Assembly (NCBI GenBank): GCA_001820255.1
Contig: MHPA01000016.1
Span: 7,288 to 58,758 of the forward strand
Length of the DNA stretch: 51,471 bases
Reading direction: 5' to 3'
Origin: Candidatus Staskawiczbacteria bacterium RIFCSPLOWO2_01_FULL_38_12b
GTDB lineage: Bacteria > Patescibacteriota > Minisyncoccia > Minisyncoccales > Staskawiczbacteraceae
Numbering within the stretch: the first letter of the stretch is position 1; each line of letters begins with the position of its first letter. The notes beneath the pieces are model-generated. The model was given only the letters and a program-made list of their open reading frames with translations, did no database searches and had not been told where the DNA came from. A program made the translations under genes and the position numbers. This document shows, in pieces, positions 13,489-27,991 of this stretch.

Positions 13489-13893
13489 TCAATAAGAAAC
13501 AAAAGGCTCGCTTCTACCTAAGTTAACTTCTTTTAACATTAAAACCCTATAGCCGGATTTTTCTAAAAGCTTTTGAGCGTCCTCGTTGGTAGCCGCTAAA
13601 ATGGTACCACTCATTTGCTGGTCATCTTGATCTTGGACAATGTAGTCAAATTCAGTTTCCAATCGGGTAAATGGTTCTAAAGCTTTAACTTTTTCGGAGT
13701 CTAGAATCTTAAAATTTATCACCACATCCGGCTGATCAAAAGACATATCGGGGGGGATATTTTTATTTTTATTAATAAGTTCGGGAAGAAACATTACCAG
13801 AGAAATAGCGATAAAAATAAAAAACAGTGAAACCATCATGATTCCAAAAAACATTCTTTGTCTTTTTTTGGGTGATATAAAAACTATGGCCAT
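13489..13893 (-). CDS. Single-pass membrane protein of the pilus operon (function unknown)
   Basis: 134 aa with one N-terminal TM (FFGIMMVSLFFIFIAISLVMFL). It sits between the pilO-like gene and pilB with short spacers. Confidence 0.5.
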   Translation of the reverse strand: MAIVFISPKKRQRMFFGIMMVSLFFIFIAISLVMFLPELINKNKNIPPDMSFDQPDVVINFKILDSEKVKALEPFTRLETEFDYIVQDQDDQQMSGTILAATNEDAQKLLEKSGYRVLMLKEVNLGRSEPFVSY

Positions 13894-13945
13894 ATTCTAG
13901 GGATTTTTCTCAATTTTTAAGATATAAAGTTCCATATTCAAACAA

Positions 13946-14500
13946 TTAATACGTGTGGGTTTGTAATTCTAACACAAAATCATATATTTTTTGCTGGTTT
14001 TCTAAAGTGGCTACATCTTGGGAGGCGGAAGGCGACCTGAAAGAAATAGAGCTTAATTCAAATAATCGCACCGATTTATCTAATGAAGAAAGGAAATTTT
14101 TTAAACTCGCATAATTTCCCATTATATTGATTCTGAAAGTGACATTTCTAATTTTATGTTCAGCCGTAGGTGGAGAAATTTTTGAAAACGTTACTGACCT
14201 TACTATCAATCCATTTTCTTTTCCCTTTTTTTGAAAAAAGAACACCAATGGGGCAAGGGAAAAATCCGTAGGTAAGGCAGCATCAATATTTGCCAGGGAG
14301 TCTTGTTTGCTTTCTATTATAGCAACGAGATTTGCTATGTTTGAAAAATAAAGAGCCTTGCTATTATATTCTGCCTCTTTCTTATATAAGCTATTTTGCA
14401 CATCGCCAACTTCTTGGTATTTGGGAATTACAAAAAGAAATACCAATATTGATGTGATAAAAATAATGATGACCGTAGAAGTTAATTTATTTATTTCCAT
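13946..14500 (-). CDS. PilO-like pilus alignment protein
   Basis: 184 aa. N-terminal TM, a coiled-coil segment, then ALPTDFSLAPLVFFFQKKGKENGLIVRSVTF. The position after the pilN-like gene fits pilMNO order. Confidence 0.55.
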   Translation of the reverse strand: MEINKLTSTVIIIFITSILVFLFVIPKYQEVGDVQNSLYKKEAEYNSKALYFSNIANLVAIIESKQDSLANIDAALPTDFSLAPLVFFFQKKGKENGLIVRSVTFSKISPPTAEHKIRNVTFRINIMGNYASLKNFLSSLDKSVRLFELSSISFRSPSASQDVATLENQQKIYDFVLELQTHTY

Positions 14501-14505
14501 GATTA

Positions 14506-15132
14506 TTAATTACTGATGTCGCTTGAACTTAATGGACTTTCGCCAACATCTGTTTGCTCGCTTGATGGTGCTTGGTAAAAACCAACAAAACCATTGGGGT
14601 AATAACTAAAGAGGGCGGGATGCAAAGAAAGCTCCAGGGTAAATGTAGTTTTTCCATTTCCAGAAACCTGGGAATTTAAAACATCAACAGCATTAATATA
14701 GTCCTTGCTATCCTCAAATATATGCACTTGATGGCTTAGTATTTCCATATTTTCTGACTCTCCGGATAATCTAACCTTGTTTTGAACTTCAGAAACATCA
14801 AAACTTGAAAACCAGACTTTTGGCAAAGTTTTTTGTTCTATGAAGCTAAAAATATTGGAAGAAATCTTGTGGTTGTCAACAAGGATATTGAATTCTTCTA
14901 TTTTTCTTTTGTAATCAAGCACTTTTTTTTCATTTGCTTTTTCCTGCTCGGTGCCATAGGCAAGCATTTTTTCTTCAAGCTTGCTTATCTTTTGATGCTG
15001 GACATATATTTTAACCGTAAAAAGGAGGTAACAAAAAATAGCGATCAGCAATAATCCGAATGCAGCATAAAAAACAGGATCCATCCATTTTAATTGCTTG
15101 TCTTTTAATTGGTACAATGATCGAAAATTCAT
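14506..15132 (-). CDS. PilN-like pilus alignment protein
   Basis: 208 aa. Short cytoplasmic N-terminus, one TM (VFYAAFGLLLIAIFCYLLF) and a coiled coil. It lies directly downstream of pilM. Confidence 0.5.
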   Translation of the reverse strand: MNFRSLYQLKDKQLKWMDPVFYAAFGLLLIAIFCYLLFTVKIYVQHQKISKLEEKMLAYGTEQEKANEKKVLDYKRKIEEFNILVDNHKISSNIFSFIEQKTLPKVWFSSFDVSEVQNKVRLSGESENMEILSHQVHIFEDSKDYINAVDVLNSQVSGNGKTTFTLELSLHPALFSYYPNGFVGFYQAPSSEQTDVGESPLSSSDISN

Positions 15133-15144
15133 AGTTAATTAAAT

Positions 15145-15263
15145 CAGAAATTCGAATGTCGAAATTCGAAAAAAATTTAAATTACCAAAATTCAAAATCT
15201 AAAATGCATTTTAGTTATTTAAAGATTTGGATTTTTGATTTGTTTCGGATTTCGAGTTTCGTG
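15145..15263. repeat. Imperfect hairpin with 7-nt periodic arms (GAAATTC / GAATTTC-type units)
   Basis: The left arm reads GAAATTC GAATGTC GAAATTC GAAAAAA ... AATCTAA AATGC. The right arm reads GCATTTT AG... GATTTGT TTCGGAT TTCGAGT TTCGTG. The centre is AAAATGCATTTT. Confidence 0.7.
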
Positions 15264-15298
15264 CTTCAAGCTTACTTCATTATACACCAAAAATAATA

Positions 15299-16366
15299 CT
15301 ACTTCTCCAGTCCTCCCAAGGCCACCCCTGTCGCCGCTGAAAACCTGGGAGCCATTATCTTAAGGGTTTGGTCAAGAATCGGGGGGTATAAAAATTCTGA
15401 AAAACAATTTGGAACGTATACTTCTTTTTTAAGGCTTTCGGCAAAATACTCTTTTAATCCCGGCAGATTGGCCGTGCCTCCTGTCAAAAAAATTTCGTCA
15501 ATTTGCTTTTGCCCTCCGTGCAAAAACTCAGCACAAACGCCTTTTATTTCAATTAAGAGGGGAGACAATAAAAGATATAAGGTTTTAACTACGTCGCTTC
15601 TTGGATGCAAAAGTCCTTCTTTATTTTTTATGTTTTCTGCTTGATCCAAAGCTACCCCCAATCCAGAAGAAACCACATTTGATAATTGGCTGCTGTTAAA
15701 GGTGAAACTGTAGCTCTTTTTTAAAAAACCTTTTTCAATAATGTTTATGGTTGAACTCTGAACTCCGATATCCACCAAGCAGACTATTTTTTTATTATTT
15801 CTTATCAACGCCCTGGTAATACCCAGCGCTTCGGCTTCCAGGGCGTATAACTGGAGACCGGCCATTTTTGCCATGGCCTGATACTCTTGGATCACTTGAT
15901 TTGGCACCGCCAGTAAAAATACTCCAAATGAAGAATTTTTACTACCGGGTGAATTTGGCATTATCTTCCAATCCAAGGTAACCTCCGAAATGGGCAGGGT
16001 GATGTATTGAGATGCATTATAACGGATGGCTTCCGGAATTTCTTTTTCCGTCATAAAAGGAATATCAAACGAAGTGCAAAATGTGGAAAAATCAGGTATG
16101 GAAAAAATGGCTTCTTTTGTTTTTATTTTTGCCTCCTCTAAAATTCCCCGTATGGCCTCTGAAGTAACATTATTTGAAAGCAAGTAACTGCCCTTTTGGG
16201 TATTTGACAAGGATTCCTTGTAAAGATATTCTGATTTTATCTCGCCGTAATTTTCCAATGTTTTGCCTTCCCCCCAGCGGGAAATTTCCACCACCTTAAC
16301 AGAGGAAGTGCCAATATCCACCCCGATCATTTTTTTAGGGAAAAACATTTTAAAGGGATTAAACAT
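15299..16366 (-). CDS. pilM: Type IV pilus assembly protein PilM (actin-like ATPase fold)
   Basis: 355 aa. IGVDIGTSSVKVVEI phosphate-1 motif, VCLVDIGVQSSTINI, and IFLTGGTANLPGL. Confidence 0.85.
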   Translation of the reverse strand: MFNPFKMFFPKKMIGVDIGTSSVKVVEISRWGEGKTLENYGEIKSEYLYKESLSNTQKGSYLLSNNVTSEAIRGILEEAKIKTKEAIFSIPDFSTFCTSFDIPFMTEKEIPEAIRYNASQYITLPISEVTLDWKIMPNSPGSKNSSFGVFLLAVPNQVIQEYQAMAKMAGLQLYALEAEALGITRALIRNNKKIVCLVDIGVQSSTINIIEKGFLKKSYSFTFNSSQLSNVVSSGLGVALDQAENIKNKEGLLHPRSDVVKTLYLLLSPLLIEIKGVCAEFLHGGQKQIDEIFLTGGTANLPGLKEYFAESLKKEVYVPNCFSEFLYPPILDQTLKIMAPRFSAATGVALGGLEK

Positions 16367-17334: not shown

Positions 17335-18906
17335 CTAAAGATCGTTTCCCGAATAAGACAAATTAAAACTTTTGTTAATTAAAGGAAAATCCGGCACCAC
17401 ATTTAAAGGACCAGCTTCTCCAACCAAGGACCAATTTAAAAATGACGGATCACAGGGCGCAACCCTGCTTATGTTCCCCGCCAAGTCAGTGGTGATAACA
17501 TATATTATTTGACCTCTCCATCCTTCAACCATGCCAATGGCCAGGGCATTTTTTTTAAATACCGTGGTATTGCGAGGGGTCAAGATGGGGCCCTTCGGTA
17601 ATTTAGTTAATGCATTTTGAATAAGGTTCATTGAAGCATAGACTTCTTTAACACGGACCCGAAATCGGGCATACACATCACCGCCCGACTCAGTTTCGAT
17701 GGTATTAAAACCTAATTCATCATAGGCCGCATAGGGAAAATCAACACGTATATCGCTCAAAATGCCCACTGCTTTGGCGGCAACCCCCAGGGCGCCGTAA
17801 TCTTTAGCGGTTTTTGGCAAAAGCACGCCGGTGCCTTTTAATCGATTTAAAAGCGAGGCGCTATTTTGGGCAATTGCAATGATTTCAAAAAAATCTTTTT
17901 GTATCTTTTCAAGGTCTTTGCCTAAAACAATTATTTCTTTGGCATTAATGTCTTTGGTAACTCCTCCAATAGTGTTTACATTGCGCAAAAATCGGCTTTT
18001 GGTCAGCCTTTCATTAATTTGCATGATCATTTCTCGTAACCTTGCCCCATTTGCACCGCCAAAATTAAATCCCGTATCAATCATGATGGCGCCAATATCG
18101 CCAAAATGGTTTGCCAGCCTTTCTAATTCTGCATATATAACGCGTAAATAAAGAGCACGTTTTGGAGGCAAAGCATCGCTTAATTGTTCTGCCGCTTGGC
18201 AAAAAGCCAATGAATGGCTAAACGAACTATCACCGGAAATTTTCTCACAAAGACGTAATTTATTACTAAGGGGAAGCGTTTCAAATAACTTTTCACTGCC
18301 TTTATGGACAAATCCAAGTTTTGCTTCCAAGAGCATAATTTCTTCTCCAGCCACGCTAAACCTAAAGTGGCCCGGCTCTATGATTCCCGCATGGATCGGG
18401 CCGACGGGAATTTCATATATCCCTTCACCCTCAACTTTTTGGAATTGATAAGTTCCATGGATTTCTTTTACTTTTGTCTGCCAGTCAAAATCCTTTCTTA
18501 ATGGGAATAGATTAGCCGGCCAGTTTTCATGCAAAATGATGGGTCGCAGGTCGGGATGCAAAACAGGAGTGAGGCCAAAAAAAGTGTGTATCTTTTTTTC
18601 AAAATTACAAGCGCTATGGATAGCCGGGGTCAGTGAAGGAAATGTAACGGTATTTTGCAGACGAATAAAAGGCACCACAAACATATTTTTTTTTGAAATG
18701 CCAAACACATACCAAATTTTAAACCCCTCTTTTTCTGCTCTTTCGTCAGTTGCGGTGATTAGGTGCAGTGGCAGGTTTTTATTAGCATGCAAATTAGTTG
18801 CGATTTCTTTGATATGCAAAGCTGGCACTTCAAAGAAAGCGATATTGCCGCAAATTTCAACTTTTACGTTTTTGGGGAGGTATTGTTGTATGTCTTCTAT
18901 ATTCAT
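17335..18906 (-). CDS. Fused NuoC-like / [NiFe]-hydrogenase large-subunit-like protein (HycE/HyfG/NuoD family) lacking all four metal-binding Cys
   Basis: The N-terminal 30-kDa (NuoC) domain is followed by YEIPVGPIHAGIIEPGHFRF. The L1 position reads EKISGDSSFSHS instead of ERxCGxCSxxHS. The C-terminus reads SFNLSYSGNDL instead of S.DPCxxCxDR. Start chosen at the Met at 18906, because the track start overlaps the upstream gene. Confidence 0.85.
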   Translation of the reverse strand: MNIEDIQQYLPKNVKVEICGNIAFFEVPALHIKEIATNLHANKNLPLHLITATDERAEKEGFKIWYVFGISKKNMFVVPFIRLQNTVTFPSLTPAIHSACNFEKKIHTFFGLTPVLHPDLRPIILHENWPANLFPLRKDFDWQTKVKEIHGTYQFQKVEGEGIYEIPVGPIHAGIIEPGHFRFSVAGEEIMLLEAKLGFVHKGSEKLFETLPLSNKLRLCEKISGDSSFSHSLAFCQAAEQLSDALPPKRALYLRVIYAELERLANHFGDIGAIMIDTGFNFGGANGARLREMIMQINERLTKSRFLRNVNTIGGVTKDINAKEIIVLGKDLEKIQKDFFEIIAIAQNSASLLNRLKGTGVLLPKTAKDYGALGVAAKAVGILSDIRVDFPYAAYDELGFNTIETESGGDVYARFRVRVKEVYASMNLIQNALTKLPKGPILTPRNTTVFKKNALAIGMVEGWRGQIIYVITTDLAGNISRVAPCDPSFLNWSLVGEAGPLNVVPDFPLINKSFNLSYSGNDL

Positions 18907-18920
18907 AATGATGGGTACGT

Positions 18921-20390
18921 TTAATAATGCGCAGCGATATTGCCAAGCAATGTATATAAAAATGGCGGAATGTAAAAACTCAAACATAACACCAAAATAA
19001 TAAGCATGGCAGGGGGAAGCAAGAGCCAAATACTTTCTTTTTCTGTTTTCATATCGGCGGGAGCCTGTCCAAACACCATGGCGCTGGCGTGTTTTAAAAA
19101 GCCGATAAATAAAATCGTCATCAATACTATAATCGTAACAACGATAAAAAGATGGTTTTTGATGCCGGCAGAAAGAATGAATAGTTTAGTAAAAAATATT
19201 CCAAATGGAGGCGCACCGGTTATGGCAAAAAATCCGGTCAAAAAGAGTGCCGCCGTAATGGGAATAGTACTCATCGCCCCTTTGACATTGGCGATTTTGG
19301 CAGAATGATATTTAAGAAGCAGATTCCCTGATGAGAAAAAAAGCGCCGATTTAATAAAAGAATGGTATATCATGTGAAGCATGGCCGCAAAAATACCCAA
19401 TCCCCCAAACCCAAAACCAAGAGCCATGATTCCCGCATTTTCAATGCTTGAGTAAGCCAATACCCTCTTGTAATTCCTGGCAACAAAGATAATGGCCGCG
19501 GCAATGGCTACTGACAGCAAACCAAACGCCATAAATAAATTTTGGCTAAATGACGGCCCTGCCACCGCATCGGTTATTATTTTAAATTTCAAAATAATGG
19601 CAAAAGCAACCGGCAATAAGGCTCCCGAAAATAATGCGCCAATAGGAGCAGGTGTTTTACTGTAAGCATCCGGTTTCCAGGTATGCATTGGAGCAAATCC
19701 CACTTTAGTTCCATAACCCACAAAGACAAAGATAAAAGCCACTTTAATAACCAAAGGGTCAAGGCTGGCGGCATTTGCGGCAAGCGCCTGCCAGCTGACA
19801 AGCTCGTTTGCGGGAAACAAATTAGCGGCGGGAAAAAACAACAACGTCCCAAAAAATGCCAGCAGTATGCCAACAGAATTGATGATTAAATATTTCCATG
19901 CGCCTTCAATAGCGGAGGGCTTATTATAAAAACTGATTAAAAACGCTGTAGAAAGGGTGGTAGCTTCAATAAAAATCCAAGCAAATATGGGGCTGGAAAC
20001 GGTAATAGCCAAAAACATCATCGCCATAAAAAGATTCAATAAAATAAAGTATTCCCTTACCCTTGACTGCAGATGGCTTACCCCTGAAAATCCGATGATA
20101 TTTTTAGCGGTTTCTTGGCGAAGGTACTCAATAGAATACACGGTCGCAGCAAAACCGACAAACGCAATAATAAGCATCACCACGGCTGCCAGCGCATCCA
20201 CAGAAAAAAATGAAGAATCGTACGTGCCAAAACGGGCAACCTGAAAAGAAATACTCATTGACGCCAATAATGCAACGCCCGAAGCAATCAGCGAAGAGAT
20301 TTCAATAACCCTTCTATGCCCAGACAAAAGGCACAGCAGTGTTGCGATAAAAAAAGAAATAAAAATAAATAGTAATTCTGTATTGTACAT
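18921..20390 (-). CDS. Proton-conducting antiporter-like subunit (HyfF / NuoN / MrpD family)
   Basis: 489 aa, about 14 TM segments, with the motifs GAPPFGIFFTKL and MHTWKPDAY typical of NuoM/N/Mrp-type subunits. Confidence 0.85.
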   Translation of the reverse strand: MYNTELLFIFISFFIATLLCLLSGHRRVIEISSLIASGVALLASMSISFQVARFGTYDSSFFSVDALAAVVMLIIAFVGFAATVYSIEYLRQETAKNIIGFSGVSHLQSRVREYFILLNLFMAMMFLAITVSSPIFAWIFIEATTLSTAFLISFYNKPSAIEGAWKYLIINSVGILLAFFGTLLFFPAANLFPANELVSWQALAANAASLDPLVIKVAFIFVFVGYGTKVGFAPMHTWKPDAYSKTPAPIGALFSGALLPVAFAIILKFKIITDAVAGPSFSQNLFMAFGLLSVAIAAAIIFVARNYKRVLAYSSIENAGIMALGFGFGGLGIFAAMLHMIYHSFIKSALFFSSGNLLLKYHSAKIANVKGAMSTIPITAALFLTGFFAITGAPPFGIFFTKLFILSAGIKNHLFIVVTIIVLMTILFIGFLKHASAMVFGQAPADMKTEKESIWLLLPPAMLIILVLCLSFYIPPFLYTLLGNIAAHY

Positions 20391-20415
20391 ATAGTTTACT
20401 TTAAATTACTTCAAA

Positions 20416-21063
20416 CTAATCTTTTAATTTCCTCATATCGGTGACATCAAGCGATCCAAAATGCTGGTAAATCATTGATACAAACATGGTGGCGATAATG
20501 AGCCAGATAGAAATATCAAACAGAATGCCAATCTGCAAGCTGGGCGATTGTTCCAGTCCGGCAAAAATAGCAAAAGCCACAATACTGTTTTCCAGCGAAA
20601 GAATACCGATGATTTGCGATAGTGCGCTTTTACGGTTGATAATCAAAAAAAGTGATAAAAAAATCATAGAAAGCGCCAGCGAAAGCAACATTTCATGAGC
20701 AGGAATAATACTGGTAAGCGGTGCGAATCTATAAGAATGGGCTATGGCGGCAAGCATGGCTAAAATCGCAAGCGTAATAGGAGTATTTAAATAGGTGCTT
20801 GCGGAAAATATCAATTCATTTTTTTTAATTAATCTGATAAAAAATCCTGGCGCCAAAATTACCTTGACGGTAAATACCAACAAAGCAATAAACAACAGCG
20901 AAATATAACCGGTTTCAAAAAAGGAATTAAGCAACAGTATCACGATGGTAAAAGACTGGACTGCGTATGCAAAAACCGCATCAAGGTTCTTTTTTGAAAT
21001 ATGCAAAAAGACAATGGTTAAAAAAATGATTTGCAATAAAAATTGTAAAAATAAAATATTCAT
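20416..21063 (-). CDS. Hydrogenase-4 component E-like small membrane subunit (HyfE / NuoK-related)
   Basis: 215 aa, about 7 TM segments, sitting between the HyfC-like and HyfF-like genes as in hyf operons. Confidence 0.65.
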   Translation of the reverse strand: MNILFLQFLLQIIFLTIVFLHISKKNLDAVFAYAVQSFTIVILLLNSFFETGYISLLFIALLVFTVKVILAPGFFIRLIKKNELIFSASTYLNTPITLAILAMLAAIAHSYRFAPLTSIIPAHEMLLSLALSMIFLSLFLIINRKSALSQIIGILSLENSIVAFAIFAGLEQSPSLQIGILFDISIWLIIATMFVSMIYQHFGSLDVTDMRKLKD

Positions 21064-21076
21064 TTAACAAATAGAA

Positions 21077-22009
21077 TTAATGTATCAGAATAATAGCCAC
21101 GACGTTAAAAATAAAAGCAATAATTAAAAGATCGGGCAAGCGAAAAAATCGAAACTTGGCGATACTCGATTCTAATACGGCAATCACCAAGCAAAAAATA
21201 ACTATTTTTATCATAAAAATAACCATGCCCAGCATAACTGCACTAATACCGGCACTTTGGGCTATACCCAAAGGAAAAAACAGATTGGAGGCTAAGGCGA
21301 TAAAAATAAGAAGTTTGTTGGCCGACGCCCATTCCATAAGCGCTAATTTTTTCCCTGAATACTCTAAAATCATCGCTTCATGGATCATGGTCAACTCCAA
21401 ATGGGTGGCCGGATTATCAAAAGGGAAACGGGCGGTTTCAGCTAGTAATACTATAAAAAACCCGAAAAAGGCAAGGGTGCCGGAAAGCAAATATTGGCTC
21501 TGGTAAAGTAAGCCGGTTTGGGAAATGGTAAACACATTAGTACTACCGCTAATAAGCGCGACCGTTAATAGTGAAAAAATAAATCCTCCTTCTGCCAAAG
21601 CAGCTACCGTCATTTCGCGGCTTGAGCCAAATCCCCCAAATGCACTGCCGGTATCAATCCCCGCCAGTGCCAAAAAGAATGTGCCAATGGCAAGGGTGTA
21701 TATGATAATCAACAAGTCCCCGGTAACAGTATTATTAATAAATGATGCAAAAAGCGGAATGCTTGCCCCTATGATAATGGTTACGGTAAAAACAATATAG
21801 GGTGCGCATCGGAAAATCCACGAAGCATCTTTGCTTATTACTTCATCTTTATGGAAAAGTTTCCATAAATCCTGGTATGGCTGGAAAATTCCGGCTCCTT
21901 GGCGATTTTGAAGTTTGGCTTTTATTTTTCTGATAATGCCAACACAAAGCGGCGCCACGGCTGGCACCAATATAATTTGAATTATCCAAATAATAATATC
22001 AATAAACAT
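21077..22009 (-). CDS. NuoH / HycD / HyfC-family membrane subunit
   Basis: 310 aa. RFPFDNPATHLELTMIHEAMILEYSG matches the conserved NuoH/HycD loop (PFD..E.E.EL..G...EYSG). Confidence 0.85.
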   Translation of the reverse strand: MFIDIIIWIIQIILVPAVAPLCVGIIRKIKAKLQNRQGAGIFQPYQDLWKLFHKDEVISKDASWIFRCAPYIVFTVTIIIGASIPLFASFINNTVTGDLLIIIYTLAIGTFFLALAGIDTGSAFGGFGSSREMTVAALAEGGFIFSLLTVALISGSTNVFTISQTGLLYQSQYLLSGTLAFFGFFIVLLAETARFPFDNPATHLELTMIHEAMILEYSGKKLALMEWASANKLLIFIALASNLFFPLGIAQSAGISAVMLGMVIFMIKIVIFCLVIAVLESSIAKFRFFRLPDLLIIAFIFNVVAIILIH

Positions 22010-22011
22010 GG

Positions 22012-24060
22012 TTATAATACAAAAAGCAATGAGATTATTAGGGCAATAAAAATATAAAGAATATACATATTGGTATTGCCACTTTGAATGCTTTTCACCC
22101 GTAAAGCTATGAGGCTAACCATTCGGTTAAGCGGTTGGTAAAAATAAGACTGATAGACATCTTGGACTCCCAAAGTAATGGTACGGGACTTTGGCAAATA
22201 CCGGCTTTGCGCATCATGGTATTCAATGTCATGTTGGATGCTAGGCCTTAAAATACCCTTAAAAATAGTAACAATTGAGCGGGAGAATCCCGTAGCGGTT
22301 ATTTCCATGCGGCCGGTTAAATCAGTTCCGCAATCCCAGGTCGCTCCAGTTTCAATTTTTTGATTTTTATTAATAACAAATGTAACAATATAAAACACCA
22401 AGCCGGCCACAAACACAAAACATATACATAAAAAAAGTAAAGAAACAGATCCAAAATTATTCCCCACGACAACCTGTTGGCCGGATGATGAGATTAAAGA
22501 AGCGGTACCTTTAAAAATAGCAAGGTTTTTCCCGACGCTTTCCAAAAACACCACTACATGTGAAGATCCTATTCCAAACAGAAGGCATAGCAGTGCCATT
22601 GCACCCATCCCAATACGCAAAGAAAGGGAAGATTCTTTAGCGCCGCTTGTGTGACTGCTTCTTGGGCGGGCTAAAAATGTCACCCCGAAAGCTTTGACAA
22701 AACAAGCTAGCGCCAATCCGCCGGTAAATGCCAGTGAGCCGGCAGCCAAAATAAAAATCCATTTTTCATACAAAGATAATGATGCTATCCCCAAAAAAAG
22801 CGACTGAAAGGTTAGCCATTCACTGAAAAATCCATTAAAGGGAGGAAGCGCAGATATTGCCATGGATCCGACAAGAAAAAAGAATGCGGTGTAGGGCATA
22901 TATTTAATAAGGCCTCCATATTCTTCTATGTTGCGTGTATGCGTTTGATTAATAACGGAACCGGCGCCCAAAAAAAGCAGGGATTTAAACGTGGCGTGAT
23001 TTAAGGTGTGGAAAAGCGCGGCAGTAAGGCTTAAAAGCGCCAGCGGCAACATATTAAGCGACAAAAAAGTCAGCGCACCGCCAAGCCCCAGCAAAATAAT
23101 GCCGATATTTTCTATGCTGTGGTAGGCCAACAGCCTTTTTATGTCATGTTCGGTAAGCGCATACAGCACTCCCAGCAAAGAAGATATTGAACCCAAAACA
23201 AGCAACGCAAGCCCCCACCACACCGGAACCGGCCAAAGCATGCCAAAGAAAATCCTGATCATCATATAAATGCCGGTTTTAATCATTACGCCAGACATTA
23301 ATGCCGAAACATGCGAAGGGGCGGCCGGATGGGCATCGGGAAGCCAAATATGAAACGGGACAATACCGCATTTTGTGCCAAAACCAATAATAGTGAAAAT
23401 AAAAATCGTATTTTTTATGGATAAGGGAATAGAAGAAGCGCCAGATTGTATAGCCTCAAATTCAAACGAACCGGTAAATTTATATAACAATAAAGCGGCG
23501 GTTATAATAAAAGCCGTGCCGACATGAGTCATAATGAGATATAAAAAACCGGCTTTCACGTTTTGCGGGTCGTTACGATCGTAGACCACTAAAAAATATG
23601 ACGTAATAGACATGACCTCCCAAGCAATCAGAAAAAAGAGCCAATTTGAAGAAGATACCACTAAAAGCATTCCTAAAATAAACAGGTTATAAAAAAATCC
23701 GAGAGCGCCAATATCATACTTTTTATAAAAATGCTTCACGTATCCGATAGCATACACAGAACAAAAAAGAGAAATTAATGAAATAATAAAAATAAAAAAG
23801 GCGGACAACTTGTCGATATGAAAAGATAACGAAAAAAACGGCACAGCAAATGCGCCCAAAGAAAAAGACAAGTCATCGCCGCCAGACGCCATTAACGCTA
23901 CAAAAAAAAGTCCAGAGAGGGATCCCAATATAGCAAAAAAATGACTCCAAATATTGGCAAACGTATCGTGCTTTCTCAATAATAAAGCTCCGATACCTCC
24001 TATGGCAAAAAATGATAATACTGCGACAAAAGTTATTTGAGAAATAATACTATTTATCAT
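22012..24060 (-). CDS. NuoL / HyfB / HycC-family antiporter-like subunit
   Basis: 682 aa, more than 15 TM segments, with FHIWLPDAHPAAPSHVSALMSGVMIKTGIY and HTLNHATFKSLLFLGAGSV motifs. Confidence 0.85.
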   Translation of the reverse strand: MINSIISQITFVAVLSFFAIGGIGALLLRKHDTFANIWSHFFAILGSLSGLFFVALMASGGDDLSFSLGAFAVPFFSLSFHIDKLSAFFIFIISLISLFCSVYAIGYVKHFYKKYDIGALGFFYNLFILGMLLVVSSSNWLFFLIAWEVMSITSYFLVVYDRNDPQNVKAGFLYLIMTHVGTAFIITAALLLYKFTGSFEFEAIQSGASSIPLSIKNTIFIFTIIGFGTKCGIVPFHIWLPDAHPAAPSHVSALMSGVMIKTGIYMMIRIFFGMLWPVPVWWGLALLVLGSISSLLGVLYALTEHDIKRLLAYHSIENIGIILLGLGGALTFLSLNMLPLALLSLTAALFHTLNHATFKSLLFLGAGSVINQTHTRNIEEYGGLIKYMPYTAFFFLVGSMAISALPPFNGFFSEWLTFQSLFLGIASLSLYEKWIFILAAGSLAFTGGLALACFVKAFGVTFLARPRSSHTSGAKESSLSLRIGMGAMALLCLLFGIGSSHVVVFLESVGKNLAIFKGTASLISSSGQQVVVGNNFGSVSLLFLCICFVFVAGLVFYIVTFVINKNQKIETGATWDCGTDLTGRMEITATGFSRSIVTIFKGILRPSIQHDIEYHDAQSRYLPKSRTITLGVQDVYQSYFYQPLNRMVSLIALRVKSIQSGNTNMYILYIFIALIISLLFVL

Positions 24061-24217
24061 ACCTCTAAGAAACTGTTTAGTAACCCCATATTTGCGCTAA
24101 AGTTATTTTTCCCGGCTGCAAATTTGCTGTCATTCGTCGGCTTGCCACACGGGCAAACCTCCTTACGCTATCAAATTTTCGCTCAGGAAAAAAAACTTTA
24201 TCATCAAAAGAGGGTTA

Positions 24218-24745
24218 TTAAACAGTTTCTAATATTTCAAGAATATGTAAAAGTCCGTAAAGAATTGCTTTAGGGCTTGGCGGATCTCCCGGAATAGCAT
24301 AATCTACCGGTATCAGGGCATTGACTCCACCAACAACCGCATAAGAATTTTTATAGATACCGCCGTCTATGGCATCATCGCCAACCGCTACTACAATTTT
24401 TGGATTAGGGGTTGCTTGGTAAGCTCTTGTTAAAGCTTCTGCCATATTACAAGTTACCGGACCGGTTACCAAAAGCATATCCGCATGCCTTGGCGAAGCA
24501 ACAAAATGGATTCCAAAACGCTCAATATCATAAAAGGCATTGGAAAGAGCAACCAGTTCCTGTTCGCAAGCGTTATCGGAACCGGCATCTACTTGCCGTA
24601 TCGCCAAGGAACCCTTAAATAATTTCCTTACCTTTTGTTGTATTTTTTCACCGATAACGATAATTTCCGTTTGCTCTTTGGTAATCTCGGTTTTTGAAAT
24701 AGTGAGCCTTGGATTTTTTAGTATTTTTAAAAAAAGTTTAAACAT
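24218..24745 (-). CDS. NuoB / HycG-like small subunit with Fe-S ligands replaced (Cys to Asp at 3 of 4 positions)
   Basis: DIERFGIHFVASPRHADMLLVTGPVT is the NuoB/HycG core. The ligand positions read GSDNACE (canonical GSCNGCE), VGDDAIDGG (G.CA..GG) and IPGDPPSP (PGCPP.P). Confidence 0.85.
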   Translation of the reverse strand: MFKLFLKILKNPRLTISKTEITKEQTEIIVIGEKIQQKVRKLFKGSLAIRQVDAGSDNACEQELVALSNAFYDIERFGIHFVASPRHADMLLVTGPVTCNMAEALTRAYQATPNPKIVVAVGDDAIDGGIYKNSYAVVGGVNALIPVDYAIPGDPPSPKAILYGLLHILEILETV

Positions 24746-24863
24746 ACATTAATTTTTATAGCATCACAATAATGTCATAATAACAACAATTATAATACTC
24801 TAATAAACGTGATTTTGCAAATTAATAAGAAAAAAACCTGAAACTGATTTCAGATTTTTCTAT

Positions 24864-24951
24864 TGGCGGAGAGGGTGGGATTTGAACCCACGAGACTCGT
24901 AAGAGTCGCGGTTTTCAAGACCGCTCCGTTAAGCCGCTCCGGCACCTCTCC
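24864..24951 (-). tRNA. tRNA-Ser (anticodon TGA), CCA encoded
   Basis: Manual fold of the reverse complement: acceptor GGAGAGG/CCTCTCC, anticodon stem GCGGT/ACCGC with loop CTTGAAA, long variable arm GACTCTTACGAGTC, T arm GTGGG-TTCAAAT-CCCAC, then GCCA. Confidence 0.9.
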
Positions 24952-25021: not shown

Positions 25022-25435
25022 TTGATGAGGGTTTCAGTTTCAAGAATAAAAATCGTAATATTTTGTAATGAAAAACTAGGATTAAAAACAGGTAATAAAG
25101 TCAAACAACAAGTTGATATCCCAAATTGGATTAAAGGTAACCTAGAATTTGAAAAAGCATGTATGCGAGGCTTAATGGATACTGATGGATGCGTTTTCCA
25201 TGAATGCCATAATATAAAAGGCAAAAAATATTGTTATCCAAGGCTTTCTTTTGTGACAGCCTCAATACCTTTACGAAATTCTGTTGTTGGAATCTTGCAA
25301 AAATTACATTTGAACCCCAAGATTAGAGGCACCAATCAAAGGTATGTACAAATAGAAGAAAAAGAAAAAATCAAAGAATATTTCAAGTTGATTGGAAGTA
25401 GTAATCCTAAACACTTGAATAAATTGAATTTTTGA
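25022..25435 (+). pseudogene. LAGLIDADG homing-endonuclease remnant (C-terminal half only)
   Basis: IPNWIKGNLEFEKACMRGLMDTDGCVFH carries a LAGLIDADG-type motif (GLMDTDG) about 50 aa into a 137-aa TTG-start ORF. No first-domain sequence is present. An in-frame stop lies at 25004-25006, just upstream. Confidence 0.6.
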
Positions 25436-25453
25436 AGCATTATTAAACAAATT

Positions 25454-25536
25454 AGGAGGAGTCGCATAACGGTATTGCAAAGGATTGCTAATCCTTGCCC
25501 TTTCGGGGGCCTGTGGGTTCGATTCCCACCTCCTCC
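25454..25536 (+). tRNA. tRNA-Ser (anticodon GCT)
   Basis: Manual fold: acceptor GGAGGAG/CTCCTCC, 3-bp D stem GCA/TGC, anticodon stem AAGGA/TCCTT with loop TTGCTAA, variable arm GCCC-TTTC-GGGGGC, T arm GTGGG-TTCGATT-CCCAC, discriminator G. Confidence 0.85.
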
Positions 25537-25576
25537 GCTTTTGTAATTAATATCGAAGATTAACTCTTATTTAGAC

Positions 25577-26494
25577 ATGCATAACCAAAAAGGATTTATT
25601 AATGTTATATTGCTCATTATTGCAATCCTTGTTTTTTTGGGCGCAGGGACTTATATTGCCTTGTATCAAAAAATAATAAATCCGTTTCCGCTAAGGCCAA
25701 ATCCCATACCCGTAGTATGCACCCAGGAAGCAAAACAATGCCCCGATGGTTCGTACGTAAGCCGCACCGGCCCAAATTGCGATTTTGCATCGTGTCCGAC
25801 AATACATCCAACGCAAAATCCCAACGAAAAACAAATCTCTTTACAAGAAGGACAGCGGGAAGCATCGCTATTGATCCAAAAAATTTATTCTGACTACGTA
25901 ACGGGCCTTAATTATCCTGAATATCCGGTAGCAACGAATCAGGGCTATCCCATAACCTTGCATATTGGAGAAACCGCCAGCAATGGATGCACCATCACTT
26001 TGACACTTATTAAAATTAATGGAGACACTGCTGTATTTACAGAAAAAACAGATTTTAACAGAATTTGCCCGATATGCCTTGCAAAAAATACATTAATTAA
26101 CACGCCTGGCGGCACAATCCCTGTACAAAATTTGCAAGAAGGAATGGCAGTTTGGAGCGTTGATGAATTTGGAAATAAAATTTCTGCCATCATTACCAAA
26201 ACCTCAAAAACTCCCGTTCCAAAAGACCATCAGATGGTTCATATCATTCTTAAAGATAAACGGGAAATTTTTGCCTCGCCAGGGCATCCCGTTGGAGACG
26301 GCAGGATTTTCAACGACCTTTTTATTGGCGACTTGCTTGATGGAAGCCGCATCATAACTGCAGAAAAAACTTTGTACGATAAAAGTTACACCTACGACAT
26401 TTTACCCTCCGGGCCAACGGGATTTTACTTTGCCGGATACAATACTGCACCCGGCTCTGCCAACGGAATTCTTATAGACAACACGCTTCACTAA
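25577..26494 (+). CDS. Membrane-anchored secreted protein with a C-terminal Hint (Hedgehog/intein-like) domain
   Basis: N-terminal TM (FINVILLIIAILVFLGAG), a Cys motif CTQEAKQCPDGSYVSRTGPNCDFASCP, and a beta-rich middle. From Cys167 onward: CLAKNTLINTPGGTIPVQNLQEGMAVW (Hint block A), SPGHP (block B-like), and YDILPSG...NGILIDNT (C-terminal blocks). Confidence 0.6.
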   Translation: MHNQKGFINVILLIIAILVFLGAGTYIALYQKIINPFPLRPNPIPVVCTQEAKQCPDGSYVSRTGPNCDFASCPTIHPTQNPNEKQISLQEGQREASLLIQKIYSDYVTGLNYPEYPVATNQGYPITLHIGETASNGCTITLTLIKINGDTAVFTEKTDFNRICPICLAKNTLINTPGGTIPVQNLQEGMAVWSVDEFGNKISAIITKTSKTPVPKDHQMVHIILKDKREIFASPGHPVGDGRIFNDLFIGDLLDGSRIITAEKTLYDKSYTYDILPSGPTGFYFAGYNTAPGSANGILIDNTLH

Positions 26495-26831: not shown

Positions 26832-26906
26832 GCCCTCATAGTTTAATGGACAGAATGCGAGCTTGCGGAGCTTGCGATGTAGGTTCGATTCCTACTGGGG
26901 GCACCA
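26832..26906 (+). tRNA. tRNA-Arg (anticodon GCG), CCA encoded
   Basis: Manual fold: acceptor GCCCTCA/TGGGGGC (one G-U pair), anticodon stem CGAGC/GCTTG with loop TTGCGGA, T arm GTAGG-TTCGATT-CCTAC, then ACCA. Confidence 0.8.
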
Positions 26907-26911
26907 AATTT

Positions 26912-27991
26912 ATGCGAACGCCACTTTCGGAAAAAAAACTCCAAGAACTCATTGAAAAAATTGAGCCCTTTAAGGTCGGTTTTGACGCAATTGGAGAACA
27001 CGTCATCATCACCGATGAAAATGCTAATATCCTTTACGCAAATAAAGGAGTAGAAGAGCAAACTGGATTTTCCATCCAAGAGATTATCGGAAAAACTCCC
27101 GCCGATGTATGGGGCGGCAAGATGCCAAAAGATTTTTATAAAACATTATGGCACACCATCAAAACAGAAAAAAAACCGTTTGTAGGGGAATTAAATAATG
27201 TAAAAAAAGACGGTACTAAGTACTGGCAAGAAATACATATTCATCCGATATTTAATCACGATGGTACGATAAAGTTTTTCATCGCCATAGAGCCTAATAT
27301 CACCGAAAGGAAGGAAAAAGAAAAATTCAAAGAAGAATTTATTTCTATTATTTCCCACCAATTAAAAAATCCCCTCACCGTGATGAAATGGACCCTGGAA
27401 ATATTAGCCAAGATAGAAGGAGCCACCTCAAGCGATCAAAAGAGAATAAAAGTAGTCCTTGAAAACACACAATCAATTATTGATTTGGTAAACGACCTCA
27501 CTATTATTTCAAAAATTGGCAAGATAGATACTCAAACCAACATTGACCTTTTTACGGTCATTAATTCAATCATTGAACAGGCCAAAGTAGCCAACCGCAA
27601 TACCGTCATTGAATTTAAAAAAGATATGGAGCCTTGCATCATAAAAAGCAATTCCACGCTTTCTTTTGAAGTATTTAAAAATCTTATTTTCAATGCCGCA
27701 GAATATTCAGATAAAGATCATGGAATAGTTAATATTCATTTGAAAAAAGAAAATGATTATTATCTTTTTTCCGTAGAAAATAACGGTATTGAAATTCCTA
27801 AAAATGAGCAAAGTAAGATATTTTCAAAATTTTTCCGCGCATCTAATGCATCCGACAGGAAAGAAAGCGGCACCGGATTGGGCCTGTTTATCGCAAAAAT
27901 GATATGCGACTATTTTGGGTGGCAAATTTCATTTAAAAGCCCGACTGACAAAGGCAATGGAGCGATTTTTCACCTAAAAATACCGATTTAG
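26912..27991 (+). CDS. Cytoplasmic PAS-domain sensor histidine kinase
   Basis: PAS region (HVIITDENANILYANKGVEEQTGFSIQEIIGK), H box FISIISHQLKNPLT, N box NLIFNAAEYS, G boxes GTGLGLFIAKMI. Start moved to the Met at 26912 because the track ORF start lies inside tRNA-Arg. Confidence 0.85.
   Translation: MRTPLSEKKLQELIEKIEPFKVGFDAIGEHVIITDENANILYANKGVEEQTGFSIQEIIGKTPADVWGGKMPKDFYKTLWHTIKTEKKPFVGELNNVKKDGTKYWQEIHIHPIFNHDGTIKFFIAIEPNITERKEKEKFKEEFISIISHQLKNPLTVMKWTLEILAKIEGATSSDQKRIKVVLENTQSIIDLVNDLTIISKIGKIDTQTNIDLFTVINSIIEQAKVANRNTVIEFKKDMEPCIIKSNSTLSFEVFKNLIFNAAEYSDKDHGIVNIHLKKENDYYLFSVENNGIEIPKNEQSKIFSKFFRASNASDRKESGTGLGLFIAKMICDYFGWQISFKSPTDKGNGAIFHLKIPI

Follow-up and report, generated by a model that had tools for sequence, protein, structure and literature searches.

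Six tightly packed genes occupy the minus strand between positions 17335 and 24745 of a 51,471-nucleotide (51 kb) stretch of DNA from Candidatus Staskawiczbacteria (CPR), the whole of which we call the window. The source organism is a tiny groundwater bacterium. All six open reading frames were confirmed at the coordinates listed here, together with a tRNA and a promoter-like site found upstream by a tRNA scan and a consensus scan:

24864-24951: tRNA-Ser(tga)
24792..24820, minus strand: promoter-like site (TTGCAA, 17 nt spacer, TATTAT), ~45 nt upstream of ehrS and just downstream of the tRNA
24218..24745, minus strand: ehrS, NuoB/HycG/MbhJ-like small subunit, 175 aa
22012..24060, minus strand: ehrA, HyfB/HycC/NuoL-like antiporter-like subunit, 682 aa
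21077..22009, minus strand: ehrB, HyfC/HycD/NuoH-like membrane anchor, 310 aa
20416..21063, minus strand: ehrC, HyfE-like subunit, 215 aa, its C-terminal half NuoK-like
18921..20390, minus strand: ehrD, HyfF/NuoN-like antiporter-like subunit, 489 aa
17335..18906, minus strand: ehrL, fused NuoC-NuoD/HycE-like large subunit, 523 aa

From ehrS through to ehrL the intergenic gaps measure 157, 2, 13, 25 and 14 nt. The mechanical ehrL reading frame runs to a TTG at 19029; homologues begin at the ATG at 18906, giving the 523-residue protein that starts MNIEDIQQ. The promoter-like site is a possible promoter at most, being a match to consensus without evidence of function. Pfam and NCBIfam profiles assign all six families (E-values 1e-6 to 1e-61): Oxidored_q6 for ehrS (2.8e-27), Proton_antipo_M for both ehrA (2.5e-61) and ehrD (6e-43), NADHdh for ehrB (5.6e-50), Oxidored_q2/HyfE for ehrC (1.4e-6), and Complex1_30kDa (3e-16) plus Complex1_49kDa (3.5e-37) for ehrL. 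The top NCBIfam matches of the membrane genes are hydrogenase 4 subunits: subunit B for ehrA (3e-194; 647 bits against a cut-off of 667), subunit F for ehrD (3e-117) and the membrane subunit HyfE for ehrC (2e-15).

Residue-level alignment to solved structures locates the metal-ligand columns. EhrS matches HycG (7z0s_G, 2e-32) and MbhJ (6cfw_J, 7e-31) in phmmer searches, and the CxxC...C...C ligands of their proximal [4Fe-4S] cluster correspond to D57, C60, D124 and D154, leaving one cysteine of four. No shifted replacement is available: C99 is the sole other Cys of EhrS, and the columns are free of such a cysteine in 120/120 closest relatives. Among those 120 small subunits the ligand pattern is DCDD in 89, DCDN in 27 and something else in 4, with the four-Cys pattern in none, while more distant cluster-less proteins carry DADD, TADD, SEGD, TEGD, NEGD and similar patterns, further variants being TEGS, DVES and DAAD. 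The loss of Fe-S ligands is thus clade-wide, and the remaining cysteine is neither conserved nor indispensable in relatives. Because the polar residues now standing where the cluster was bound differ between relatives (D/S/T/N, C/A/E/V, D/G/E and D/N/S), they do not define a particular ion site. EhrS, modelled with AlphaFold2, is predicted to keep the NuoB fold (mean pLDDT 92), with NDUFS7, HycG and MbhJ as top Foldseek matches (TM 0.87, rmsd 2.1 Å to 6cfw_J). In EhrL, which aligns to HycE (7z0s_E, phmmer 3e-65), none of the four [NiFe] cysteines remains: 'RVCGICGFAHS' of HycE has become 'KISGDSSFSHS', and 'DPCYSC' has become 'NLSYSG'.

Electron-transfer partners are likewise missing. A CxxCxxCxxxC motif is missing from all six reading frames of the window, and a Pfam scan of 51 ORFs in it (the six Ehr genes and 45 others) found no Fer4, Hyp, FDH/molybdopterin, CODH or NuoE/F/G match. 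Nor did any MrpB/E/F/G homologue appear by Pfam in the cluster or the window, and hyp genes are absent from every annotated flank of the relatives' Ehr loci. In one relative, L037, ehrL is followed after 146 nt by a small Fer4 gene.

These features place the locus in a cluster-less subtype of the energy-converting-hydrogenase-related (Ehr) complex. Its large subunit clusters with Ehr, away from true hydrogenases. The nearest loci are in Staskawiczbacteria MAGs, and EhrS is 100% identical to a protein of a RIFCSPLOWO2_01 bin. A six-gene make-up without HycF/NuoI is normal for Ehr (PMC3569383, PMC7894505) and holds in all 90+ Ehr loci that we compared; likewise, Ehr large subunits without Ni-Fe cysteines have been reported to form a monophyletic CPR clade (Jaffe et al. 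2020, PMC7304191), so that loss is already known. We found no published description of the clade-wide loss of Fe-S ligands, of the retention of ion and coupling residues with an acidic pocket, of the linkage to atp genes, or of the recurrent CsoSCA-like gene. The first-pass annotation had proposed a six-gene Hyf/Mbh-like, Ehr-type complex in a CPR genome, with none of four [NiFe] and one of four Fe-S cysteines, and with no HycF/NuoI, electron-input or hyp gene in the window. Each of these claims held, as did the placement outside the true hydrogenases and the absence of shifted metal-binding cysteines, with the qualification that the lack of HycF and the six-gene composition are nothing special to this locus.

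The complex is no relic but is under strong purifying selection: the six-gene order is conserved at 51-81% protein identity across many CPR lineages at phylum level and 156 of 524 large-subunit positions are invariant. The former active site of EhrL, whose motifs we compared across 33 loci, now reads S224-G-D226-S227-S228...H231 and N515-L-S517-Y-S-G520-N-D-L. Twelve residues (S224, D226, S227, S228, N266, D270, D277, D486, S488, N511, K512 and S517) are invariant and Ehr-specific; by sequence they lie in or flank the two former Ni-Fe-binding motifs, at positions where HycE/HyfG mostly have hydrophobic, Cys or neutral residues, and most are common to four-Cys Ehr. The β1-β2 loop His/Glu and the proton-path His/Lys/Glu/Arg are also retained, HycE H188, E193, H284, R395, E437 and R478 aligning with EhrL H172, E177, H267, K378, E421 and R464. 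From sequence alone, we infer that an invariant polar pocket, strongly acidic and rich in hydroxyl groups, now takes the place of the old active site and is still connected to conserved proton-relay residues.

The membrane arm is similarly complete. Both antiporter-like subunits possess the TM5 Glu, TM7 Lys, TM8 His/Lys and TM12 Glu/Lys: residues E148, K230, K261, H351, H355, K359 and E414 of EhrA align with key residues of E. coli NuoL/M/N and HyfB, and EhrD retains E142, K229, H339, H343, K347 and K402. EhrC keeps its conserved membrane Glu ('LSLEN'), and the C-terminal extension of EhrA bears a conserved ND3-like loop, 'ATWDCG'. In EhrB, alignment with HyfC, HycD, NuoH and 11 Ehr loci (seven cluster-less, four four-Cys) revealed an Ehr-specific ND1 loop, PFDNPATHLELTMIHEAMILEYSG, with a three-residue insertion relative to HycD/NuoH. 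The seven cluster-less loci have this loop almost unchanged; its core, 'THLELTMIHE', recurs in two of the four four-Cys loci (L022, L025) and is divergent in the two most distant (L029, L031). No ion-channel or coupling residue has been lost, and the ion machinery is intact.

Comparing 30 cluster-less with 64 four-Cys loci, we found ATP synthase genes in the fetched flanks of 14 of the former and none of the latter (Fisher p = 8e-9). In six loci (L004, L005, L011, L028, L042 and L048) ehrS comes straight after atpC, separated from it by 3 nt in L011 and by 9 nt in L042; L014 has Ehr inside the atp operon, flanked by atpG and atpD; L015 and L043 have the two sets of genes in convergent orientation; and the deep-branching cluster-less loci L075 and L101 are also linked. 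The c-subunits of the linked operons lack the Na+-site Gln and Ser/Thr, and these F1Fo ATPases are therefore predicted to be H+-type. Neither the window itself nor the two loci closest to it, L001 and L002, have atp genes adjoining Ehr. The statistic carries no correction for phylogeny and the loci are not phylogenetically independent; one or two operon fusions in an ancestor could account for the linkage.

The reading that we favour, while judging it rather more apt to fail than to hold, is that cluster-less Ehr is a redox-independent ion translocator linked to the proton motive force and working with the F-ATPase. This is inferred, not shown; transport and biochemical data are lacking for every Ehr (PMC10284858, PMC6349859). 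With the [NiFe] site and proximal [4Fe-4S] cluster lost and NuoI/HycF absent, the complex could not carry electrons. What it retains (two complete antiporter-like channels, the NuoH E-channel subunit and all four loops coupling membrane and peripheral arms) would most likely form a proton/cation antiporter-type device, in which the cofactor-free NuoB/C/D cap may serve as a cytoplasmic, protonation-controlled gate or ion entry chamber. Its partner would be the H+-type F1Fo ATPase, making a proton gradient from ATP in a fermentative CPR cell, which would explain why cluster-less Ehr so often lies beside or inside the atp operon. Respiratory chains are generally absent from CPR bacteria, homologous MrpA/D/C subunits build the Mrp antiporters, and deactive mitochondrial complex I reportedly performs Na+/H+ antiport (Roberts and Hirst 2012). 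The suggestion of the first-pass annotation, an ion machine not driven by electron transfer or an Mrp-like antiporter, remains inference, strengthened, though not proven, by the dispensable last cysteine, the intact ion hardware and the genomic tie of cluster-less Ehr to F1Fo ATP synthase. Against antiport, the MrpB/E/F/G-type subunits to which the Na+ path of Mrp and MBH is ascribed are absent from the complex, and a plain antiporter has no obvious need for a conserved ~700-residue NuoB/C/D cap with an invariant pocket, which argues for some chemistry or ligand there. The lack of adjacent atp genes in the window, L001 and L002, the non-independence of the atp statistic, the variability of the old cluster site and the Fer4 gene of L037 also count against ion translocation.

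Two alternatives give the complex a chemical task, and we consider both unlikely. In one, cluster-less Ehr, a CsoSCA-like β-carbonic anhydrase (β-CA) and the F-ATPase would form an energy-coupled system in which the proton gradient drives CO2 hydration, as in DAB and cyanobacterial NDH-1MS/CupA, or HCO3-/CO2 conversion moves protons. Genes with a β-CA zinc-site motif (CxDxR/D ... HxxC, or H-x10-C) directly adjoin ehrL, ehrS or atpC in 7/30 cluster-less but only 2/64 four-Cys loci. A family of 340-380 aa CA-like proteins comprises 2525 sequences, almost all of them patescibacterial; most match Pfam CsoSCA_cat, and NCBI labels some 'carboxysome shell carbonic anhydrase'. Among four CA-like genes picked only for their long contigs, that of L126 lies 13 nt after atpC and that of L127 directly before a cluster-less Ehr. 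There is also a precedent in DabB, a NuoL-like protein coupled to the β-CA-like DabA. Yet the window contains no CA-like gene and most Ehr loci have none nearby; the two proteins scanned with Pfam only just pass the cut-off (22.6 bits where 21.5 is required, and 34 where 30 is required); homology between the small and large CA-like families is not demonstrable; CA activity is only inferred; and, as the CA of DAB/Cup binds an antiporter-like subunit, the conserved NuoB/C/D pocket is left unexplained. The other alternative is a primary ion pump whose EhrL pocket would convert an unidentified non-redox substrate (for instance through hydrolysis, decarboxylation or protonation-linked chemistry); the change in charge would, by the complex-I coupling mechanism, drive protons outward and feed ATP synthase. 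The invariance of the pocket across cluster-less Ehr, its residues largely common to four-Cys Ehr, favours this, as do the retained coupling loops and proton-relay residues, which transmit active-site events in complex I and FHL (PMC9474812), and the ATP synthase linkage would suit a gradient generator. But there is no candidate substrate, no recognisable catalytic motif, no conserved partner enzyme beyond the minority CA-like genes, and no precedent in the superfamily for a non-redox reaction at this site.

Still less plausible is an enzyme that remains redox-active, holding an Asp/Cys-ligated cluster or mononuclear metal at the old sites and drawing electrons from ferredoxin or another donor encoded elsewhere. 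Asp occupies three of the four EhrS ligand positions in the window and is an Fe-S ligand in some proteins, four-Cys relatives keep the cluster, and L037 has its Fer4 gene. However, relatives do not preserve the four positions as a set of ligands (DCDN, DADD, TADD, SEGD, NEGD, TEGS, DVES, DAAD), the NuoI/HycF relay and Ni-Fe ligands are absent, and the window lacks a ferredoxin motif or electron-input gene, as the annotated flanks lack hyp genes. A decaying hydrogenase remnant or purely structural membrane scaffold seems at least as remote. The catalytic metal ligands are all gone and CPR genomes are undergoing reduction, but six intact ORFs persist in conserved order in dozens of divergent genomes, with the protein identity noted above across phylum-level lineages and invariant functional residues in channels and loops; neither dN/dS near 1 nor frequent frameshifts are seen, and retention of a 7.4 kb operon in ~1 Mb genomes argues for selection.

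Named members of the Ehr class, GSU0739-45 of Geobacter sulfurreducens, Desru_3260-65 of Desulfotomaculum ruminis and the CPR clade of Jaffe et al., share with this locus the same six subunit types (EhrS, EhrL, NuoH-like, HyfE-like and two antiporter-like) without NuoI/HycF, a large subunit without Ni-Fe CxxC motifs, the S-G-D-S/T-S/T motif in that subunit and THLELTMIHE in the NuoH-like one. The cluster-less subtype differs in having lost the four proximal cysteines that most sampled Ehr keep, in its S-first gene order and in its atp linkage. The closest characterised sequences are E. coli hydrogenase 4/formate hydrogenlyase-2 (HyfA-J) and FHL-1 (HycB-G, PDB 7Z0S), HycE and HycG being the top PDB matches of EhrL and EhrS. 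The NuoC-NuoD fusion, coupling loops and proton-path residues are the same, whereas the Ehr locus lacks the [NiFe] ligands, proximal cluster and the HyfA, HyfH and HycF ferredoxin subunits, and the window lacks HyfD, a formate dehydrogenase partner and hyp/hycI maturation genes. With Mrp antiporters it shares two MrpA/MrpD-type subunits and a NuoK/MrpC-like element, with channel residues intact, and, as proposed here, redox-independent action; unlike them, it has NuoH, NuoB and NuoC-D homologues and none of MrpB/E/F/G. DAB (DabAB) has a single membrane subunit, and NDH-1MS is redox-driven, with Fe-S clusters; the window has no CA-like gene, and any binding of the CA to Ehr would be conjectural. 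What Ehr shares with DAB and NDH-1MS/CupA is the use of complex-I-type antiporter-like subunits outside classical respiration and, in relatives, a β-CA-like gene adjoining Ehr or atp.

Six consecutive open reading frames on the minus strand of the window, at 17335-24745 and separated by gaps of 157, 2, 13, 25 and 14 nt, encode an energy-converting-hydrogenase-related (Ehr) complex, and Pfam and NCBIfam bear out the six-gene Hyf/Mbh-like cluster and the individual subunits that the first-pass annotation had proposed.

Genes of the Ehr cluster, in order of transcription (all on the minus strand), and sites 5' of it
ehrS, first, minus strand: NuoB/HycG-type small subunit (Pfam Oxidored_q6)
ehrA, second, minus strand: HyfB-like antiporter-like subunit (647 bits to the NCBIfam hydrogenase-4 subunit B model)
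ehrB, third, minus strand: HyfC/NuoH-like subunit (Pfam NADHdh)
ehrC, fourth, minus strand: HyfE-like subunit (Pfam and NCBIfam)
ehrD, fifth, minus strand: HyfF-like antiporter-like subunit (Pfam and NCBIfam)
ehrL, sixth, minus strand: fused NuoC-NuoD large subunit (Complex1_30kDa plus Complex1_49kDa)
24820-24792: promoter-like site, 5' of ehrS
24864-24951: tRNA-Ser gene, 5' of ehrS

Because all homologues begin at the ATG at 18906, we placed the start of ehrL there, giving a protein of 523 residues (MNIEDIQQ...), and discarded the upstream TTG of the mechanically called frame. The gene order S-B-C-E-F-L is kept in all close relatives, and Ehr synteny in 21 genome loci. A regulatory element in the 157-nt gap between ehrS and ehrA was considered and rejected, as the equivalent gap is not conserved in one related locus (L002) and is absent from another (L001). 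Elsewhere, an Ehr cluster whose small subunit also lacks the four Fe-S cysteines (hereafter cluster-less; L127) has its HyfC/NuoH-like and HyfE-like subunits fused into a single protein of 532 residues (13882-15480).

Aligned with Escherichia coli HycE (7z0s_E, E = 3e-65), ehrL reads 'KISGDSSFSHS' for 'RVCGICGFAHS' and, at the C terminus, 'NLSYSG' for 'DPCYSC'; none of the four Ni-Fe cysteines remains, their places being taken by S224, S227, S517 and G520 (compared with HycE, MbhL and E. coli HycE/HyfG). The Fe-S columns of ehrS, defined against HycG (7z0s_G), MbhJ (6cfw_J) and NDUFS7, hold D57, C60, D124 and D154, one cysteine out of four. Could the ligands have moved? The columns are unambiguous, relatives contain no compensating cysteine, and since C99 is the only cysteine in ehrS besides C60, no shifted ligand set is available. 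These alignments to solved structures uphold the earlier claim that the complex has no [NiFe] cysteine and a single Fe-S cysteine, which would have failed had the metal-binding cysteines been present but displaced.

The same annotation had reported no HycF-type, electron-input or hyp gene in the window, and this too held: across the 51 of its open reading frames scanned (the six Ehr genes and 45 others), Pfam detected no Fer4, Hyp, formate dehydrogenase, CODH or NuoE/F/G, matching instead type IV pilus genes, a ComF-like protein, class I ribonucleotide reductase, RecG, glycosyltransferases, TsaD, LeuRS and T4SS pilins, among others. A six-frame regular-expression search of the whole window found no CxxCxxCxxxC ferredoxin motif, ruling out a hidden small ferredoxin frame or a HycF remnant, and neither the 51-kb window nor the annotated flanks of its relatives contain hyp maturation or endopeptidase genes, the rest of the genome being outside the scope of the search. 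The complex is unable to bind a Ni-Fe centre or a four-cysteine cubane, and has no relay subunit.

To place these losses we compared 33 loci from species-representative genomes, 7 from long contigs and 80 from metagenomes. None of the 120 closest small subunits has four cysteines at the Fe-S positions, which read DCDD in 89, DCDN in 27 and similarly in the rest, and more distant members replace the remaining cysteine by Ala, Thr, Glu or Val (DADD, TADD, DTDN, SEGD, TEGD, NEGD, TEGS). Because the positions vary in this way, C60 of the window is not a conserved ligand and there is no fixed alternative metal site. A conserved aspartate triad (D57, D124, D154) as a metal site, attractive for the window, is weakened by variation across the wider cluster-less group (SEGD, NEGD, DAAD, DVES, TEGS). 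In 64 more distant Ehr loci (four-Cys loci) all four Fe-S cysteines are present, yet the Ni-Fe cysteines are absent. The ehrS protein is nonetheless predicted by modelling, with high confidence, to keep the NuoB fold (mean pLDDT 92; Foldseek TM 0.87 and rmsd 2.1 Å to MbhJ).

The protein encoded by ehrS is 100% identical to one from a Candidatus Staskawiczbacteria bin; among species-representative genomes the nearest loci are also Staskawiczbacteria (78-81% large-subunit identity), with many other Patescibacteria at 51-68%. In two neighbour-joining trees, one of 44 and one of 120 large subunits, ehrL is surrounded only by sequences lacking the Ni-Fe cysteines, and HycE, HyfG and the sole cysteine-bearing sequence (L063) fall outside its group. 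A position within active group 4 enzymes, which would have refuted the first-pass annotation, is thus not seen, with the qualification that the trees carry no bootstrap values and no curated group 4 reference set. L063 itself (10001-11467), with genuine Ni-Fe cysteines in the pattern CVCACC and about 44% identity, sits at the base of the Ehr group in an unsupported tree and may be a true hydrogenase near the Ehr root.

A distribution exclusive to Patescibacteria (CPR) was not upheld: the subtype also occurs on contigs of 50-56% GC assigned to 'Syntrophus', 'Desulfobacterales', 'Fibrobacteria' and 'Bdellovibrionales' metagenome bins, where mis-binning and gene transfer remain unresolved, and two such 'Syntrophus' contigs share a downstream FAD-oxidase gene. 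Four single contigs carry two Ehr clusters each (L006, L062, L085, L115). On L006, labelled Fibrobacteria, the cluster-less subtype is accompanied by a second cluster resembling four-Cys Desulfurivibrionaceae loci, the likeness consisting of the same HTH/EIIA-type gene in front, since its own small subunit lies outside the fetched stretch; bins labelled CPR are thus not strictly the only ones to hold the cluster-less subtype. That gene (3859-4611 in L025, with equivalents in L006, L026, L027 and L033), encoding HTH_17 and PTS EIIA-2 domains, precedes the four-Cys clusters of Desulfurivibrionaceae type and points to possible regulation linked to the PTS or nitrogen-PTS.

What has been retained is the machinery of ion transport. 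Both antiporter-like subunits keep the chain of charged residues typical of NuoL/M/N (E148, K230, K261, H351, H355, K359 and E414 in ehrA; E142, K229, H339, H343, K347 and K402 in ehrD), and the membrane glutamate of the HyfE-like subunit and an ND3-like loop ('ATWDCG') at the C terminus of ehrA are likewise present. In the NuoH-like subunit the ND1 loop, 'PFDNPATHLELTMIHEAMILEYSG', is specific to Ehr and near-invariant among the cluster-less loci aligned, its core recurring in two of the four four-Cys loci in the alignment. In ehrL, the β1-β2 loop retains its histidine and glutamate (H172, E177), together with equivalents of the HycE proton-path residues H284, R395, E437 and R478, whose roles, like those of the loop, are described in the formate hydrogenlyase structure paper (PMC9474812); the canopy residue Asp529 of HycE is Asn515. 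A further set of ehrL residues is invariant and specific to Ehr (S224, D226, S227, S228, N266, D270, D277, D486, S488, N511, K512, S517), lying in sequence in and around both former Ni-Fe motifs, mostly supplanting hydrophobic, cysteine or neutral residues of HycE/HyfG and mostly shared with four-Cys Ehr. Because these invariant residues occupy it, the old catalytic pocket is to be regarded as conserved, acidic and hydroxyl-rich rather than decayed. The ion-translocating and coupling hardware is intact, and the complex is under strong purifying selection.

Genomic context separates the two kinds of Ehr. Of 30 cluster-less loci, 14 have ATP synthase genes in the flanking sequence fetched, and of 64 four-Cys loci none does (Fisher's exact p = 8e-9, or 2e-6 if loci with less than 8 kb of flank are left out); without correction for kinship, these values are not true probabilities because the loci are related. 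In one locus (L014) an atp operon, atpB-E-F-H-A-G-D-C and otherwise normal, is interrupted after atpG by the six Ehr genes, with atpD on their far side (Pfam). In six others (L004, L005, L011, L028, L042, L048) ehrS comes immediately after atpC in the same orientation, the two being 3 nt apart in L011 and 9 nt apart in L042. L041 has its atp operon 4 kb upstream, and in L015 and L043 the operon converges on ehrL. Scattered over the cluster-less clade, the linkage survives rearrangement and extends to deep-branching cluster-less loci only 40-43% identical (L075, L101), which in the unsupported neighbour-joining tree stand separate from the main clade; it was not seen at the window or at its nearest relatives, L001 and L002. 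The cluster-less state goes together with F-ATPase operon linkage. The c-subunits of the Ehr-linked operons lack the Gln and Ser/Thr signature of Na+ binding and are therefore predicted to be of proton type, and a Na+-type ATP synthase was accordingly rejected as a rationale for an antiporter.

Genes with the zinc-site motifs of β-carbonic anhydrases adjoin ehrL, ehrS or atpC at 7 of the 30 cluster-less loci and at 2 of the 64 four-Cys loci. The larger of two families (340-380 residues; motifs 'FKCMDGRIH' and 'TYHYSxGD..RGCAGF') has 2525 members, almost all from Patescibacteria, most of which match Pfam CsoSCA_cat, and some are named 'carboxysome shell carbonic anhydrase' by NCBI. When four of its genes were chosen by long contig alone, one (L126) lay 13 nt after atpC and another (L127) directly before a cluster-less Ehr. 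The smaller family (180-210 residues) has an invariant C-x-D-G ... H-x-x-C, and one member matches Pfam Pro_CA_2.

Carbonic-anhydrase-like genes beside Ehr or atpC at related loci
L126, 4382-11071: CsoSCA-like, by atpC/Ehr
L127, 10001-18685: CsoSCA-like, by atpC/Ehr
L043, 17240-20540: CsoSCA-like, by atpC/Ehr
L055 and L059: CsoSCA-like, downstream of ehrS
L005, 11795-12340: small family, by ehrL or atpC, cluster-less locus
L042, 17274-17819: small family, by ehrL or atpC, cluster-less locus
L015, 11855-12439: small family, by ehrL or atpC, cluster-less locus
L014, 13600-14226: small family, by ehrL or atpC, cluster-less locus
L052: small family, by ehrL or atpC, cluster-less locus

CsoSCA-like neighbours also occur beside some four-Cys Ehr. 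Homology between the small (~180 residues) and large (~360 residues) families could not be demonstrated, the hhalign score not being significant; the two proteins scanned directly gave borderline Pfam scores, and phmmer returned no match to the large family in the PDB. The carbonic-anhydrase-like neighbour is to be taken as a lead and not as a finding.

Several other neighbourhoods deserve record. Of the cluster-less loci seen, just one has a ferredoxin neighbour: in L037, from the complete Moraniibacteriota genome CP065011.1, a Fer4-type gene for 124 residues (17351-17725) follows ehrL in the same orientation after 146 nt, and a Ferric_reduct membrane protein is encoded 2 kb beyond. In the window, directly upstream of the Ehr operon (25022-26494, plus strand), frames with a LAGLIDADG domain (137 residues) and a Hint domain (305 residues) flank a tRNA-Ser(gct) at 25455-25538, possibly as remnants of a homing endonuclease or intein-like element. 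A tRNA-Arg (26832-26906, plus strand) overlaps the first 60 nt of the mechanically called PAS-histidine-kinase frame (26846-27991), whose start therefore probably lies further downstream. Seven paralogous small frames of 113-190 residues with T4SS-pilin/TrbC-like Pfam matches stand in a row at 46244-49982 (minus strand), and at 3641-3979 and 6549-7064 (both minus strand) a 23S-rRNA-intervening-sequence-protein frame lies amid type IV pilin genes, with a PaaX_M/Cas2-like frame nearby.

The finding of the first-pass annotation is thus real and correctly interpreted, its ion-translocating role remaining inferred. The reading we prefer, without biochemical evidence and with the balance tipped slightly against it, is that cluster-less Ehr may translocate ions independently of redox chemistry and in connection with the proton gradient, which in a fermentative cell an H+-type F-ATPase would make. 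Proton/cation exchange would be the most economical mode. Precedents exist in the homologous Mrp antiporters and in mitochondrial complex I, which in its deactive state shows Na+/H+ antiport. The difficulty is that a simple antiporter would not obviously need a conserved NuoB/C/D cap with an invariant pocket, and this pocket therefore leaves room for two other readings. At the pocket, non-redox chemistry or the binding of a ligand might drive or gate transport, which the pocket's invariance keeps in play and which we consider unlikely; coupling to a carbonic anhydrase encoded nearby, on the model of DAB or NDH-1MS, is similarly doubtful, resting on the adjacent genes of other loci when the window itself contains no such gene. 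A residual redox function is very improbable because the four ligand positions vary freely, and a relic is equally so because of the conservation.

Under the preferred redox-independent reading, the superfamily's membrane and coupling hardware would work without electron transfer, and an active transporter of this kind would offer a minimal system for dissecting it. Both kinds of Ehr share the pocket and the coupling elements, from which we infer that electron transfer might not be needed at all for the function conserved in the class. A bolder and improbable reading joins an H+-F1Fo ATPase, a CsoSCA-like β-carbonic anhydrase and a redox-free complex-I-like translocator in a hitherto unrecognised three-part CPR module, which would link CO2/HCO3- interconversion with ATP or the proton gradient, in either direction; if it were true, complex-I coupling machinery could be driven by non-redox chemistry, and the conserved function of the whole Ehr class would be independent of electron transfer.

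For complex I and the related hydrogenases, the central unsolved problem is how events at the active site drive the pumping of ions. Cluster-less Ehr is a natural, strongly conserved 'redox knock-out', its metal sites all gone and its antiporter channels, E-channel subunit, four coupling loops and proton-relay residues kept. It also bears on the membrane energetics of CPR bacteria, which have no respiratory chain and do have an F-type ATPase, and its repeated proximity to atp operons and CsoSCA-like genes yields testable hypotheses for a function unknown since Ehr was named. In the literature searched we found no description of complete clade-wide Fe-S loss with the full transport machinery, of atp-operon linkage specific to the cluster-less state, or of the recurrent CsoSCA-like neighbour. 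The Ehr assignment and the missing HycF-type subunit and Ni-Fe ligands are already known, having been published for the class and the CPR clade: Ehr clusters comprise six genes, show kinship with Ech/Hyf hydrogenases and usually encode a large subunit devoid of Ni-Fe cysteines (PMC3569383, PMC7894505); they are a known class of unknown function (PMC6349859, PMC10284858), and Jaffe et al. 2020 (PMC7304191) described the CPR sequences as a monophyletic Ehr subclade without metal-binding cysteines that 'likely cannot interact with H2'.

Set against known systems, the complex is not a group 4 [NiFe] hydrogenase (Hyf/Hyc/Mbh/Ech), failing on both the Ni-Fe (0/4) and the proximal [4Fe-4S] (1/4) cysteines. 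Nor is it complex I (NDH-1), the NuoB-like subunit lacking the N2 ligands and the window having no Pfam match to NuoI, NuoE, NuoF, NuoG, NuoA or a separate NuoJ. For DAB/Cup systems, whose antiporter-like subunit binds a carbonic-anhydrase-like partner encoded alongside it, the observations are that CsoSCA-like or Pro_CA_2-like genes are adjacent in 9 of 94 related loci and that none is in the window; any binding to Ehr would be by analogy. The complex differs from Mrp cation/proton antiporters in having MrpA/D- and MrpC-like folds only, with no MrpB/E/F/G-type Pfam match in the cluster and hence not the MrpA-G set; an antiporter-like mode of action remains possible all the same. The cluster meets every mark of Ehr membership that we applied: no NuoI/HycF-type 2x[4Fe-4S] subunit (no Fer4 match), a large subunit without the L1 and L2 CxxC Ni-Fe-binding motifs, grouping, in trees without bootstrap values, with Ehr rather than with active group 4 hydrogenases, and, in all six frames, the full set of NuoB-, NuoC/D-, NuoH- and HyfE-like subunits plus two of NuoL/M/N type.
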